Shown here: one piece after another, positions 1-5,511 of the stretch
Layout: every line of letters begins with the position of its first letter
Numbering within the stretch: position 1 is the stretch's first letter
From: a plasmid
Reading direction: 5' to 3' (one strand)
Length of the DNA: 64,000 bases
Assembly: GCF_988243305.1 (NCBI RefSeq)
Contig: NZ_OZ547138.1
Notes under the pieces: generated by a model
Seen by the model: only the letters and a program-made list of their open reading frames with translations
What the model was told of the DNA's origin: nothing
The model's database searches: none
Made by a program: the position numbers and the translations under genes

Positions 1-36
1 TGTTATCTTGTTATCTTGTTATCTCAAGGTGTTATC
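1..36. repeat. Inverted-orientation copies of the 8-bp GATAACAA-type repeat (TTGTTATC x3 plus a partial copy), cut by the window edge; candidate second centromere-like site downstream of the partition operon
   Basis: tgttatcttgttatcttgttatc at 1-24 is the reverse complement of the tandem repeat at 1084-1147. Confidence 0.5.
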
Positions 37-334
37 TTTGTTTTACTTCTGCTATCAATCGTGATACCTCTGTTTTTGATAGTGTTTTAAGTGCTTCTAC
101 CGCCGCCCTGACAACATCAGAACGATTCACTCTGCCTTTACCTGAAACCATCTCAGCCGTTATAAGGGCATCAATGTCTTTTAGGTTTTCTTCAAAAAAA
201 GAAATACTCACTGGTTTTGCTTTGCTTACAACCGATGATTTATCTGATGACTTTTTGGTATTATCAAGGCCAGCCGTGCCACCGTTAATAAATGCTGCCT
301 CGTCACGAGGTGAAGTGTTTGCTCTATTTCTCAC
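32..334 (-). CDS. Small partition partner protein (ParG/ParB-like, putative RHH centromere-binding protein)
   Basis: 100-aa ORF overlapping the ParA stop by 4 nt (ATGA); basic C-terminal region; position immediately downstream of ParA. Confidence 0.5.
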   Translation of the reverse strand: MRNRANTSPRDEAAFINGGTAGLDNTKKSSDKSSVVSKAKPVSISFFEENLKDIDALITAEMVSGKGRVNRSDVVRAAVEALKTLSKTEVSRLIAEVKQR

Positions 335-957
335 AGAATAACCTCTTTCACTAACGCTTCGATTTCTTGCTGGGCTTTATCATTTTGCGTTTCAAAAATT
401 GTCATTGATTCGGCCCAAGCATCTCGATGTGCTTTACGATCACATACCCGGGAGTTTGCCAGATGCATTTCAGGGTAATCCTTAAGTACTTCAGCTGCCT
501 CATTGGCTTCATTAACAAACATATTTGTGGGCGTCATGTTTAAAACGAGATATCCCCGAACATCCTCATTAAAATCTTTTGCTGCTGTAAAAACGGAGCA
601 TGTATGAGGCACAACATCCAGGTCCATCTGAGATGGGCGCAAAGGAGAAATGAATACATCTGCGGCCATCAATCCACTACGCATTTCTGCGCTATCACGG
701 CCAGCACAGTCTGCAATAACAAAATCATAGGATTTTTCGTGTTCCTTTAACATGGCTTTGATGTTACCTGTCGCGCCTGTAACCGGAATATGAGGGAGAT
801 CTTCAGGGCGATTGTTGTACCAGGTTAATACTGATTTCTGGTCATCTGCGTCGACAATAATCACTCTATTGCCTAGTGACATCAGATACGCAGCTATAGA
901 TACCGCCAGTGTACTTTTACCTACCCCACCCTTTTGACTACCTAATACTATTATCAT
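331..957 (-). CDS. ParA-family (ParF-like, type Ib) partition ATPase
   Basis: Deviant Walker A motif GSQKGGVGKST near the N-terminus; 208 aa; followed by small partner gene and flanked by repeats. Confidence 0.85.
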   Translation of the reverse strand: MIIVLGSQKGGVGKSTLAVSIAAYLMSLGNRVIIVDADDQKSVLTWYNNRPEDLPHIPVTGATGNIKAMLKEHEKSYDFVIADCAGRDSAEMRSGLMAADVFISPLRPSQMDLDVVPHTCSVFTAAKDFNEDVRGYLVLNMTPTNMFVNEANEAAEVLKDYPEMHLANSRVCDRKAHRDAWAESMTIFETQNDKAQQEIEALVKEVIL

Positions 958-1036
958 TATAGCCTCATATTAAGCTGTTAAGTTAACAACTTAATATTGC
1001 CATCTGAACACGAACCATGCAATTATTTTTGTTATG

Positions 1037-1057
1037 TTAACAACTTAGTAAGTTGTT
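1037..1057. promoter_or_regulatory. Perfect palindrome TAACAACTTA-g-TAAGTTGTTA in the partition operon promoter region; candidate operator
   Basis: 10-bp inverted repeat arms; related half-site TTAACAACTTA also at 975-990. Confidence 0.35.
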
Positions 1058-1083
1058 AAGTATTTGATTTATAGATTAATTAA

Positions 1084-1147
1084 GATAACAAGACAACAAG
1101 ATAACAAGATAACAAGATAACAAGATAACAAGATAACAAGATAACAA
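1084..1147. repeat. Eight tandem 8-bp repeats (GATAACAA, one GACAACAA variant); candidate partition centromere (parC/parH-like) or iteron array
   Basis: Direct tandem repeats read from the sequence upstream of the ParA gene start. Confidence 0.6.
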
Positions 1148-1168
1148 TATTATGGGTGGATTACATAT

Positions 1169-2440
1169 TCATAACTGGGCTACTGGCAAATCTGTCCATC
1201 TGGTGGTATACGCAGGAGAAAGCATTTCCCGTTTCATTTGCCATTCAGGGGCGGTTCCTCGCCCCGCAAACCACACTTTCCCTTTTCCCGACTGGTTCAG
1301 TTCATCGAGTGTTTTCATTAACTTTTCACTGTTTTTACGGGGCTGGATTTCATCAAATAATCCCGGCTGCGCTATACCCGATGGTGTGAAATCAGCCAGC
1401 ATGACTCCTGCCTTCATATAGCGGTACCCTTCACGCCAGACATGGTTTAAGGCTCTGCATGCGGCGGCAATAATGTCCCGGCTGTCCTGTGTGGGCAATG
1501 GAAGCTTTTCCACAGCGGCATTGCTGTAACAGGGTTCTTTTACTGCAAAGGGGGATGTCCGTACAAATGTCGTCACCTGCCGGCAATACTGACGCTCCCC
1601 ACGTAGTTTCTCTGCGGCCCGCTCTGCATACTGAACAACAGCCTGGTGCATGGCATCTTTGTCTGTGATTCGTTCACCAAAACTGCGACTACAGACAATC
1701 TGCTGTTTTGCCGGTGGTGCTTCTTCCAGGGATATGCAGGACTCGCCGTTGAGTTCGCGTACCGTACGCTCAAGAATGACGCTGAAGTTTTTCCGGATGA
1801 ATGCCGTGTTAGCCTGCGCCAGCTGCAGTGCTGTGTTAATACCCAGCGCATTCAGCTTTTCCGTCAGTCTGCGTCCTACTCCCCAGACCTCACCAACTGG
1901 CTGCAGCCCCAGTAGCTTCAAGGTCCGATTACGGTTTTCTGCCGTCAGCGCGACCACACCGGAAAACTGTGGCCATTGCTTTGTTGCCCACTGGGCACTT
2001 TTAGCCAGCGTTTTTGTAGGCGCAATGCCCACCCCCATGGTGAGTCCTGTCCAGCTCTTTACCTGTTCCCTGAGCTGATGACCAAAAATCTCCGGAGAGA
2101 TGCAATGATTTATCCCCCGCAAATCAATGAACATTTCATCAATTGAGTAGGGCTCAACTGCGGGAGAAAGCGACTCCAGAACAGCCATAACCCGTTGGCT
2201 CATGCTGTGGTACAGCGCATAATTGCTGGAAAATACATGTATTTTCTTCTCCAGGCGCATTTGTCTCACCTGAAACCAGGGCTGCCCCATTCTGATGCCA
2301 AGGGCTTTTGCCTCCGGGCTGCGCGCGATCACACAGCCATCGTTATTGCTGAGTACGATGACCGGTTCGTTGCGAAGGTCCGGGCGGAAAACTTTTTCAC
2401 ATGAGGCGTAGAAACTGTTGATATCAGCCAGTGCAAACAT
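1169..2440 (-). CDS. impB: Error-prone Y-family DNA polymerase subunit (UmuC/ImpB/MucB family)
   Basis: 423-aa translation starts MFALADINSFYASCE, the conserved UmuC N-terminus; operon with impA and impC. Confidence 0.9.
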   Translation of the reverse strand: MFALADINSFYASCEKVFRPDLRNEPVIVLSNNDGCVIARSPEAKALGIRMGQPWFQVRQMRLEKKIHVFSSNYALYHSMSQRVMAVLESLSPAVEPYSIDEMFIDLRGINHCISPEIFGHQLREQVKSWTGLTMGVGIAPTKTLAKSAQWATKQWPQFSGVVALTAENRNRTLKLLGLQPVGEVWGVGRRLTEKLNALGINTALQLAQANTAFIRKNFSVILERTVRELNGESCISLEEAPPAKQQIVCSRSFGERITDKDAMHQAVVQYAERAAEKLRGERQYCRQVTTFVRTSPFAVKEPCYSNAAVEKLPLPTQDSRDIIAAACRALNHVWREGYRYMKAGVMLADFTPSGIAQPGLFDEIQPRKNSEKLMKTLDELNQSGKGKVWFAGRGTAPEWQMKREMLSPAYTTRWTDLPVAQL

Positions 2441-3516: not shown

Positions 3517-4443
3517 ATGCCAAACTGGTGCTCGAATCGTATGTATTTTTCTGGTGAACCGGCACAGATCGCTGAGATTAAACGACTGGCCAGCGGCGCA
3601 GTCACACCGTTTTATCGCCGCGCCACAAATGAAGGTATTCAGCTGTTTCTGGCCGGAAGTGCCGGACTTCTGCAGACCACTGAAGATGTGCAGTTTGAAC
3701 CGTGCCCCGGACTGACGGCTGCCGGACGTGGTGTTGTATCGCCGGAGAATATCGCGTTCACACGCTGGCTGACACACCTGCAGAACGGTGTGCTACTGGA
3801 TGAACAAAACTGCCTGATGCTGCATGAACTCTGGCTGCAGAGCGGTACTGGACAGCGTCGCTGGGAAGGATTACCGGACGATGTCAGGGATACCATCACC
3901 GCACTTTTCACCGCAAAAAGAGGTGACTGGTGTGGCTTCTGGAGTAACGAGGATGTATCGGTGTGGTGGAACCGTCTGTGTGACAACGTACTGCCGGAAA
4001 AAACCATGCCGTTTGACCTGCTGACGGTTTTGCCGACCCGCCTGGATATTGAAGTGAATGGCTTTAACGGCGGTGTTCTGAACGGTGTTCCTTCTGCATA
4101 TCACTGGTATACAGAACGGTATGGCGTGAAGTGGCCTTGTGGGTATGACCTGAATATCAGCAGTCAGGGGGAAAACTTCATTCAGGTAGATTTCGACACG
4201 CCGTGGTGTCAGCCGGAAAGCGACGTTGTTGCAGAATTAAGCCGCCGTTTCAGCTGCACAATGGAGCACTGGTATGCCGAACAGGGCTGCAATTTCTGTG
4301 GCTGGCAGCGATATGAGCGTGGCGAGCTTGTTGATGTGCTGTGGGGGGAGCTGGAATGGTCTTCCCCGACAGATGACGATGAGCTGCCGGAAGTCACCGG
4401 ACCTGCGTGGATAGTCGACAATGTGGCGCATTATGGCGGATGA
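3517..4443 (+). CDS. Conserved leading-region hypothetical protein (Cys/Trp-rich)
   Basis: ORF with GAGGAG RBS 7 nt upstream of ATG 3517; the longer frame from 3472 lacks an RBS. Confidence 0.5.
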   Translation: MPNWCSNRMYFSGEPAQIAEIKRLASGAVTPFYRRATNEGIQLFLAGSAGLLQTTEDVQFEPCPGLTAAGRGVVSPENIAFTRWLTHLQNGVLLDEQNCLMLHELWLQSGTGQRRWEGLPDDVRDTITALFTAKRGDWCGFWSNEDVSVWWNRLCDNVLPEKTMPFDLLTVLPTRLDIEVNGFNGGVLNGVPSAYHWYTERYGVKWPCGYDLNISSQGENFIQVDFDTPWCQPESDVVAELSRRFSCTMEHWYAEQGCNFCGWQRYERGELVDVLWGELEWSSPTDDDELPEVTGPAWIVDNVAHYGG

Positions 4444-4827: not shown

Positions 4828-5511
4828 ATGTCCCGTTTTGTCCTCGGTAACTGCATCGATGTTATGGCCCGTATTCCTGATAACGCCATTGATTTCATAC
4901 TGACTGACCCGCCGTACCTCGTCGGTTTTCGTGACCGTTTCGGGCGCACCATCGCTGGCGATAAAACCGATGAATGGCTGCAACCGGCCTGTAATGAAAT
5001 GTACCGCGTACTCAAAAAAGACGCGCTGATGGTGAGCTTCTACGGCTGGAACCGCGTCGATCGCTTTATGGCCGCCTGGAAAAATGCGGGATTCAGCGTT
5101 GTTGGTCACCTGGTCTTCACCAAAAACTACACATCGAAGGCCGCATATGTGGGCTATCGCCACGAATGCGCCTACATCCTGGCAAAAGGCCGTCCACGTC
5201 TGCCACAAAACCCGCTGCCGGACGTGCTGGGCTGGAAATATTCGGGCAATCGTCATCACCCGACGGAAAAGCCCGTTACCAGCCTGCAACCGCTGATTGA
5301 GAGCTTCACACACCCGAACGCAATTGTGCTGGACCCGTTTGCAGGCAGCGGCTCAACCTGCGTCGCTGCCCTCCAGTCCGGACGCCGGTATATCGGTATC
5401 GAGCTGCTTGAGCAGTATCACCGTGCCGGGCAGCAACGCCTTGCCGCCGTGCAACGGGCCATGCAGCAGGGGGCCGCGAATGATGACTGGTTTATGCCGG
5501 AGGCTGCGTAA
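4828..5511 (+). CDS. Orphan N6-adenine DNA methyltransferase (beta-class, DPPY motif)
   Basis: Motif LTDPPYL near the N-terminus and FAGSGST near the C-terminus; no adjacent restriction endonuclease gene. Confidence 0.8.
   Translation: MSRFVLGNCIDVMARIPDNAIDFILTDPPYLVGFRDRFGRTIAGDKTDEWLQPACNEMYRVLKKDALMVSFYGWNRVDRFMAAWKNAGFSVVGHLVFTKNYTSKAAYVGYRHECAYILAKGRPRLPQNPLPDVLGWKYSGNRHHPTEKPVTSLQPLIESFTHPNAIVLDPFAGSGSTCVAALQSGRRYIGIELLEQYHRAGQQRLAAVQRAMQQGAANDDWFMPEAA

Follow-up and report, generated by a model that had tools for sequence, protein, structure and literature searches.

The first 1147 nucleotides of the plasmid DNA analyzed here (a stretch of 64,000 nucleotides, hereafter referred to as the window) very probably hold the type Ib ParABS partition locus of IncI1 plasmids, of the type found in pESBL and R64, in which two partition genes, parA and parB, lie between arrays of the octamer GATAACAA. 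The locus, its components, and its centromere have all been published before, and, apart from two palindromes in the promoter region (P1 and P2), it is an ordinary one. For the locus as a whole, we lean slightly toward a reading in which one protein, ParB, of predicted ribbon-helix-helix (RHH) fold, would recognize the direct array upstream of the genes, the promoter palindromes P1 and P2, which are built from octamers that vary at position 7, and a bipartite array downstream. What we add to the published picture is modest: the predicted RHH fold, two candidate variant-octamer operators, the bipartite downstream layout, the polymorphism of the arrays, and the interruption of the downstream one by a transposon.

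A megablast search of window positions 1-1300 against plasmids, in which 4333 records matched, yielded 100% DNA identity with the IncI1 plasmid pERB12a3 and about 99.3% identity with pESBL-EA11 from E. coli O104:H4. In both of these plasmids, the annotated ParA and ParB proteins are WP_000587689.1 and WP_001245884.1. The ParABS system of pESBL and R64 matches the present one in its proteins, in the GATAACAA octamer, in having two-sided arrays with an inverted junction after parB, and in the Tn2 end within the distal array. The sole difference between the loci of pESBL-EA11 and the window is the number of array units: By locus comparison, the window has 8 upstream units instead of 7, and the distal downstream units number 9 in pERB12a3 (the closest match of the window) versus 10 in pESBL-EA11.

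The partition locus was already known, since Daniel et al. (2020, Genes 11:1207; PMC7602700) studied exactly the par system of pESBL. These authors re-annotated the pESBL ParA with its Walker A motif, named the 100-amino acid (aa) protein Hp7 ParB, classed the system as type Ib, and compared it with those of pB171 and pSM19035. Centromere binding, focus formation, and mini-F stabilization are experimental results obtained there for identical proteins and repeats: An unstable mini-F was stabilized by the cloned pESBL par locus, GFP-ParB foci were seen only in pESBL-carrying cells, and, in EMSA, ParB shifted a probe with seven direct repeats (7DR) in seven steps and a probe with four plus four inverted repeats (8BS) in eight (PMC7602700). 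These stepwise complexes, one per octamer, suggest that one ParB unit occupies each octamer (PMC7602700). According to the supplementary oligonucleotides of that paper, 7DR comprises the upstream array with its flanks in the 7-copy version of pESBL, and 8BS, which represents the inverted junction downstream of parB, is TTGA(GATAACAA)3GATAACACC(TTGTTATC)3, the first arm of which is the reverse complement of window positions 1-27. Deletion of par from pESBL caused no visible destabilization of the plasmid, as this was masked by conjugative re-transfer and cell death (PMC7602700).

The parAB genes of R64 are 100% conserved in pESBL and occur in 48% of 460 I-complex plasmids (PMC10286972), and a parAB type present in about half of the I-complex resistance plasmids is of practical relevance. 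The same ParAB is carried on the plasmid with the ESBL gene of the 2011 E. coli O104:H4 outbreak strain, and close relatives are found on hundreds of Klebsiella plasmids. In a 2025 transcriptome paper on pESBL, we found no parAB content.

The partition proteins

The parA gene (positions 331..957, minus strand), identified from the list of open reading frames together with Pfam and NCBIfam, encodes a 208-aa Walker-type partition ATPase. A deviant Walker A motif, GSQKGGVGKST, spans residues 6-16, and the protein matches the Pfam families MipZ, AAA_31, and CbiA, with matches to the ATPase domain beginning at residue 2, as well as the NCBIfam family ParA_partition (E = 1e-45; 155.8 bits, which is under the 180-bit cut-off). 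Its nearest solved relative is the 206-aa ParF of plasmid TP228 (4dzz; E = 2.3e-14, over ParA residues 6-207), a distant relationship. ParA is without an N-terminal DNA-binding domain, which places the system in type Ib. An earlier note on this DNA, made from the sequence alone, had proposed precisely such a type Ib par operon flanked by two sets of centromere repeats, a reading that the identity to the pESBL locus supports. We picture ParA as a ParF-like Walker ATPase that would be bound to the nucleoid as an ATP dimer.

The parB gene (positions 32..334, minus strand) starts with a GTG codon that overlaps the parA stop codon by 4 nt (GTGA). Its product is the 100-aa centromere-binding protein Hp7/ParB of pESBL, as recognized from the list of open reading frames and the identical accession. 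Daniel et al. reported no homology of pESBL ParB to known ParB proteins and no DNA-binding motif (PMC7602700). Searches of ParB against Pfam, NCBIfam, and the PDB, the last by sequence and by profile, gave no meaningful match: Pfam detected neither a ParB/Spo0J nor an HTH domain, and no RHH family or solved RHH structure was matched by sequence or profile, nor was ParG of TP228, at E values up to 10 in the PDB. A small partner of this kind, other than an HTH-CTPase of the ParB/Spo0J family, is what a type Ib system would have. A database search returned 164 relatives of ParB, all about 100 aa long and all from Enterobacterales plasmids, with identities down to about 55% among the 120 matches listed. 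A few of these relatives are named RHH proteins by their source records.

An alignment of 24 relatives displayed a conservation pattern that appears typical of RHH proteins. The N-terminal peptide contains invariant residues (R2, N3, R4, E12, F15, I16, G18, and G19) within a tail consensus MRNRxxTPPRDExxFIxGG, after which follow a variable linker, an invariant K38-A-K-P-V-S-x-S45 segment, and two helices connected by an invariant N70-R-S-D cap. The layout predicted for ParB comprises a disordered N-terminal tail, an RHH domain, and an extra C-terminal helix. The AlphaFold model of the monomer (pLDDT 70.6) displayed helices with no called strand and had no Foldseek match in the PDB, and we therefore modeled residues 36-100 as a dimer, in the form of a glycine/serine-linked tandem, which is an artificial construct. 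This linked tandem gave an RHH-like dimer, in which the predicted DNA-reading strand is invariant across the compared loci in the 24-relative alignment. From the conservation pattern and this model, we infer that ParB is likely an RHH-fold dimer, a fold that is unproven given that the tandem construct is artificial. For the conserved N-terminal tail, the most likely role is to contact ParA and to stimulate its ATPase activity. The prediction assigns a fold to the ParB that Daniel et al. were unable to classify.

Palindromes in the parAB promoter region

An inverted-repeat search found two palindromes between the upstream array and parA. P1 (positions 1037-1047 / 1049-1059) has perfect 11-nt arms, TTAACAACTTA-g-TAAGTTGTTAA, and reads TTAACAAC TTACTAAG TTGTTAAC in gene orientation, where it lies upstream of the putative -35 element. 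The earlier note had listed a perfect palindrome with 10-bp arms; the palindrome is real and perfect, but its arms are 11 nt long, and the second palindrome had escaped that list. This second one, P2 (positions 967-981 / 983-997), has 15-nt arms with one mismatch (93%) and reads ATATTAAG TTGTTAAC TTAACAGC TTAATAT in gene orientation; it overlaps the putative -10 element and transcript start, and is followed by GAGG and then by the ATG of parA. The half-site TTAACAACTTA, when allowing for at most one mismatch, has four copies in the 64-kb window versus 0.34 expected, all of them in P1 and P2. Counted from the first unit of the array, the promoter-proximal unit of P1, TTGTTAAC (positions 1036-1043), lies exactly 13 × 8 bp away and is thus in register with the array. 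The units of the palindromes differ from the centromere unit mainly by a T to A change at position 7 (TTGTTAAC versus TTGTTATC), and they keep the TGTTA/TAACA core as well as the 3-nt gap of the ParB-bound inverted junction downstream of parB. On these likenesses in sequence and spacing, together with the conservation described below, we consider P1 and P2 to be, on balance, probable ParB operators, comparable to the ParG-bound sites of TP228; in this simplest reading, ParB at the palindromes would repress parAB and so autoregulate it.

As to the position of the promoter, we infer from reading the sequence a putative parAB promoter at 993..1022 on the minus strand, with a -35 element TTGCAT (1022..1017) and a spacer of 17 nt to CAATAT or of 18 nt to AATATT (998..993). 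A sigma-70 consensus scan at a 9-of-12 threshold missed this favored promoter. The only minus-strand promoter that the scan did report upstream of parA (981..953) is implausible, as its -10 element would lie over the start codon. With the promoter placed at 993..1022, ParB bound at P2 would occlude the -10 element and the transcription start, and P1 would provide a site upstream of the -35 element. Between P1 and the upstream array lies an A+T-rich spacer of about 24 bp (1057..1083, minus strand), which contains the invariant TATAAATCA (columns 13-21 of a five-locus alignment). Within this spacer, AATCAAATACTTA (gene orientation) fits the IHF consensus, WATCARNNNNTTR, and may be an IHF site. 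Alternatively, TATAAA in the spacer could be a -10 element.

Across five loci, with ParB identities down to 68%, P2, TTGC, and GGCAATATT are conserved while the promoter spacer between them drifts. P2 is kept almost base for base in pB207_F, in a Klebsiella plasmid whose locus neighbors a RepB gene, and in the Erwinia and Pantoea relatives, and in pB207_F, one core unit of P2 is the exact centromere octamer TTGTTATC. The Erwinia relative carries nine TTGTTATC units upstream and a downstream site made from TTGTTAAC/TTAACAAC units, and the more distant Enterobacter and Citrobacter-like relatives have a promoter-proximal palindrome, TTATCTTAATAAGATAA, of centromere-type units. Among IncI plasmids, P1 has a variable center and largely conserved outer arms, in which pCARB35_03 and pNDM-T2 each carry a single substitution. 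In R621a, P1 consists of three clean units, TTAACAAC TTGTTAAG TTGTTAAC.

It is possible, although we find it doubtful, that P1 and P2 are not ParB sites at all, being instead sites of another factor (a host or plasmid regulator) or relics of decayed octamers, with autoregulation exerted via the upstream array. The palindrome units carry an A at position 7. In the centromere arrays of the compared IncI-complex and Klebsiella plasmids, each unit has a T at this position and an A was never found, so that ParB might have only a low affinity for the palindromes, or a different protein might occupy them. The variable center of P1 points in the same direction, the conserved TATAAATCA beside the array could be a -10 element with its -35 element in the last octamers, and the upstream array of pB171 (parC1) regulates its operon (PMC7602700). 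Yet P2 has hardly changed among loci with ParB identities as low as 68%, even though the adjoining sequence drifts, the palindrome units retain the core and gap geometry of a junction that ParB binds, and a natural variant, pB207_F, has the exact parS octamer in P2. Within the 64 kb, the half-site is confined to P1 and P2, a distribution that would not be expected of a regulator acting across the plasmid, and the par cassette is self-sufficient on mini-F (PMC7602700). Daniel et al. make no mention of the promoter palindromes, nor do they assign a regulatory role to the upstream array (PMC7602700). Read as ParB operators, the two conserved variant-octamer palindromes offer a testable proposal for the autoregulation of parAB.

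Arrays upstream and downstream of parAB

The earlier note had reported eight tandem 8-bp repeats upstream of the parA-like gene, and these were confirmed at 1084..1147 (plus strand). This array, parS-up, is composed of seven GATAACAA units and one variant unit, GACAACAA, at 1092-1099, as seen in the sequence and with Tandem Repeats Finder, which reported a period of 8 with 8.2 copies and 96% matches at 1082-1147; the array starts 22 nt past the stop codon of impB. In the 64-kb window, GATAACAA occurs 12 times versus 1.12 expected, a count that none of 100 shuffles reached, and 9 of the 12 copies sit in the two par arrays. The octamers outside the arrays are only three isolated copies in the 64-kb window, which is near chance and gives no hint of a regulon spread over the plasmid. 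Both the octamer and its placement on either side of the genes, which the earlier note had thought worth recording, are already described in PMC7602700.

On the other side of the genes, the proximal block of the downstream centromere (parS-down) consists of three GATAACAA units at 1..24 on the minus strand, so that the minus-strand reading is the gene orientation (period 8, 3.0 copies, and 100% matches at 1-24, inverted, by Tandem Repeats Finder). A degenerate octamer, GATAACAC (30..37, minus strand, read from the sequence), holds the parB stop codon (TAA, 34..32); it is present in 8 of the 8 I-complex plasmid loci compared, and in 9 when including pB207_F, where it is GATAACAT. The at least three inverted copies that had been noticed past the partner gene are thus borne out at 1-24, with the degenerate octamer at 30-37 as a fourth. 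The window edge cuts the first inverted copy, and the downstream centromere is hence incomplete in the window. Leftward extension, which the earlier note had advised for counting the downstream repeats, revealed an additional inverted unit, beyond which 9-10 units run in the orientation of the upstream array: In pERB12a3, the sequence left of window position 1 continues with one further inverted unit, a CC junction, and nine units in the opposite orientation, which these distal units share with the upstream array. The description of the cassette as bracketed by repeats in opposite orientations therefore holds within the window, where the units at 1-24 are inverted, but not beyond its edge, where most units match the upstream orientation.

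The distal array of pERB12a3 is bounded by a 38-bp inverted repeat with blaTEM-1 adjacent, which we take, from its likeness to the Tn3 terminal repeat and from this neighboring gene, to be the end of a Tn2/Tn3-family transposon. The second end of the transposon was located in pESBL-EA11, at a distance of about 8 kb, beside 1.6 further octamers and the native flank, and a 5-bp GATAA duplication flanks both sides of the transposon. The site is without the transposon insertion in pCT, R621a, pCARB35_03, pN410, pNDM-T2, and the FDAARGOS_1256 plasmid, and these insertion-free plasmids have 1-3 inverted units, after which 5-10 units take the orientation of the upstream array. R621a and pCARB35_03 have one inverted unit only, over the parB stop codon, while the inverted units number 5 in the Tn2-bearing lineage of pESBL and the window. 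The downstream centromere tolerates the transposon insertion.

The number of units varied considerably between plasmids. By locus comparison, the upstream units range from 3 to 9 (with match lengths in agreement) and the downstream units from 5 to 10; the upstream array counts 3 units in pN410, 4 in pCARB35_03, 5 in R621a, 6 in pNDM-T2, 7 in pESBL-EA11, 8 in the window and in pCT, and 9 in the FDAARGOS_1256 plasmid. In the mechanism that we propose, ParB dimers of the predicted RHH fold would bind cooperatively, one unit per 8-bp GATAACAA repeat, and the partition complex would form as ParB coats the array upstream of the genes and the bipartite one downstream of them. If the palindromes are ParB operators, the variation in unit number and the splitting of the distal array by the transposon would tune both expression and centromere strength.

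We consider it improbable that the inverted units following parB serve mainly as a transcription terminator or as an mRNA-stabilizing hairpin, without being part of the centromere. In the lineage of the window, the transcript of the junction has a predicted hairpin with a folding energy of -53 kcal/mol (z = -10.4), and a terminator scan of 1-1400 found no terminator-like site, which leaves no other predicted terminator there. In R621a and pCARB35_03, however, the inverted block is a single unit, with a weak fold of -29 kcal/mol (z = -2.4) in R621a, and a separate GC-rich hairpin is located further downstream where the inverted block is a single unit; moreover, the junction probe was bound by ParB in vitro (PMC7602700). 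The single inverted unit of R621a and its weak fold indicate that a terminator role of the junction is not conserved, and we rejected the inverted-array hairpin as a conserved terminator, while such a role is possible in the lineage of the window. No Rfam family was found in 1-1400 at E values up to 1.

Replication control in IncI1 plasmids relies on RepZ and an antisense RNA and is not known to involve iterons. That the octamer arrays are replication iterons for a Rep protein encoded outside the window, the finding that the earlier note had named as fatal to its reading, is scarcely credible: Iterons are typically tandem short repeats and a Klebsiella relative has a RepB gene about 600 bp upstream of parA, but both arrays are direct targets of ParB, and mini-F can use the cloned locus as its partition site (PMC7602700), and the arrays travel with parAB among unrelated replicons (IncI1, IncK2/Z, IncFII, Klebsiella, Pantoea, and Erwinia plasmids), which together exclude the iterons.

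Comparison with other partition systems

With the ParFGH system of TP228, the present locus shares an ATPase of the ParF family and a small partner protein with a flexible N-terminal tail, the partner being a predicted RHH protein here. ParG of TP228 binds both parH (12 boxes) and the OF operator (8 boxes in mixed orientation), with an 8-bp period (PMC3130281). The sites in TP228 and in the present locus have this 8-bp period in common, with one dimer per box as the likely stoichiometry. They also share a layout in which a direct array lies upstream and boxes of mixed orientation come next, close to the promoter (PMC3130281). While parH is located upstream of parFG, we found no mention of a downstream TP228 site in PMC3130281. 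Binding to the operator has been demonstrated for ParG of TP228, whereas for the present ParB it is what we propose. The motifs are different, with ACTC plus an AT spacer in TP228 versus GATAACAA here, and ParB is without detectable sequence similarity to ParG, the common fold class being predicted only.

The par2 locus of pB171 (parC1-parA-parB-parC2) is likewise a type Ib operon between two centromere sites, a resemblance that concerns the layout only. To that extent, the pB171 par2-like dual sites invoked in the earlier note are found here, with arrays on both sides, and the comparison had already been drawn in PMC7602700. The upstream site of pB171 par2 is also regulatory (discussion in PMC7602700; constructs in PMC4270457). 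The two loci differ in the repeat unit and in its arrangement.

The delta-omega system of pSM19035 has an RHH protein on contiguous short repeats, both direct and inverted, and its sites double as centromere and operators. It differs from the present system in its 7-bp unit, which has another sequence, in its Gram-positive host, and in its larger ParA (delta), and its sites precede several promoters instead of being placed on both sides of a single operon. Daniel et al. cited pSM19035 as a dual-array system (PMC7602700).

A transposon end within the downstream centromere

In plasmids identical to the window, a 38-bp terminal repeat of the Tn2/Tn3 family (positions 3881-3918 and 4873-4910 of stretches L001 and L002, respectively) interrupts the downstream centromere array in its distal portion, to the left of window position 1. 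The other side of the split was located at 1935-1985 of a further stretch, L014: 1.6 octamers, still bordered by the native flank, had been cut off by the transposon and now lie at a distance of ~8 kb, with a 5-bp target duplication (GATAA) at the insertion. The pESBL partition locus works despite this split of its downstream array.

When folded as RNA, the inverted arrays 3' of parB are predicted to form a hairpin (-53 kcal/mol, z = -10.4; L001 3915-4045, minus strand). Because the corresponding region of R621a folds only weakly, we consider this structure to arise incidentally from the arrangement of the arrays.

Octamer arrays and the promoter spacer in relatives

The octamer arrays varied among relatives. 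In an Erwinia sp. contig (L018 1790-1900), whose ParB is 71% identical, the upstream array comprised nine TTGTTATC units, and the downstream site consisted wholly of TTGTTAAC/TTAACAAC units, i.e., the type that builds the promoter palindromes of the window. In pN410, six successive units 3' of parB were TTATTATC, with a G to A change at position 3. This one variant unit has thus spread across the array, suggesting that the array expanded through slippage or unequal exchange.

Between the upstream array and the promoter palindrome P1 (window 1057-1083), the element TATAAATCA was invariant in five diverged loci. Its form in the window, AATCAAATACTTA in gene orientation, matches the IHF consensus and may be an IHF site; alternatively, it could be a -10 hexamer.

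Related par loci in R621a and Salmonella Infantis

The parAB genes of R621a have been taken as unrelated to the R64 type (PMC10286972). In contrast, the R621a record encodes ParA and ParB identical to those of R64/pESBL, adjoining impB; presumably, R621a has a second annotated par system.

The Salmonella Infantis megaplasmid p160771_1 carries an orphan parB (within positions 1500-2900 of stretch L005) that is 91% identical, with R4G and G22D at positions invariant elsewhere, an IS-like fragment in place of parA, and downstream octamers reduced to about two. This par locus looks like a decaying remnant. The 90-95% identity band into which its parB falls held 146 plasmid records.

Neighboring genes

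The impCAB operon (UmuDC-like) lies directly upstream of parAB and points in the same direction. The impB stop codon and the first octamer are only 22 nt apart (window 1148-1169), and the interval contains no predicted terminator-like site, so transcription from the imp promoter may run on into the centromere and parAB. Further along, the leading region contains a DNA methylase ORF of 227 aa (window 4828-5511); pESBL reportedly carries a single-strand-specific methyltransferase, M.EcoGIX (PMC7736820).
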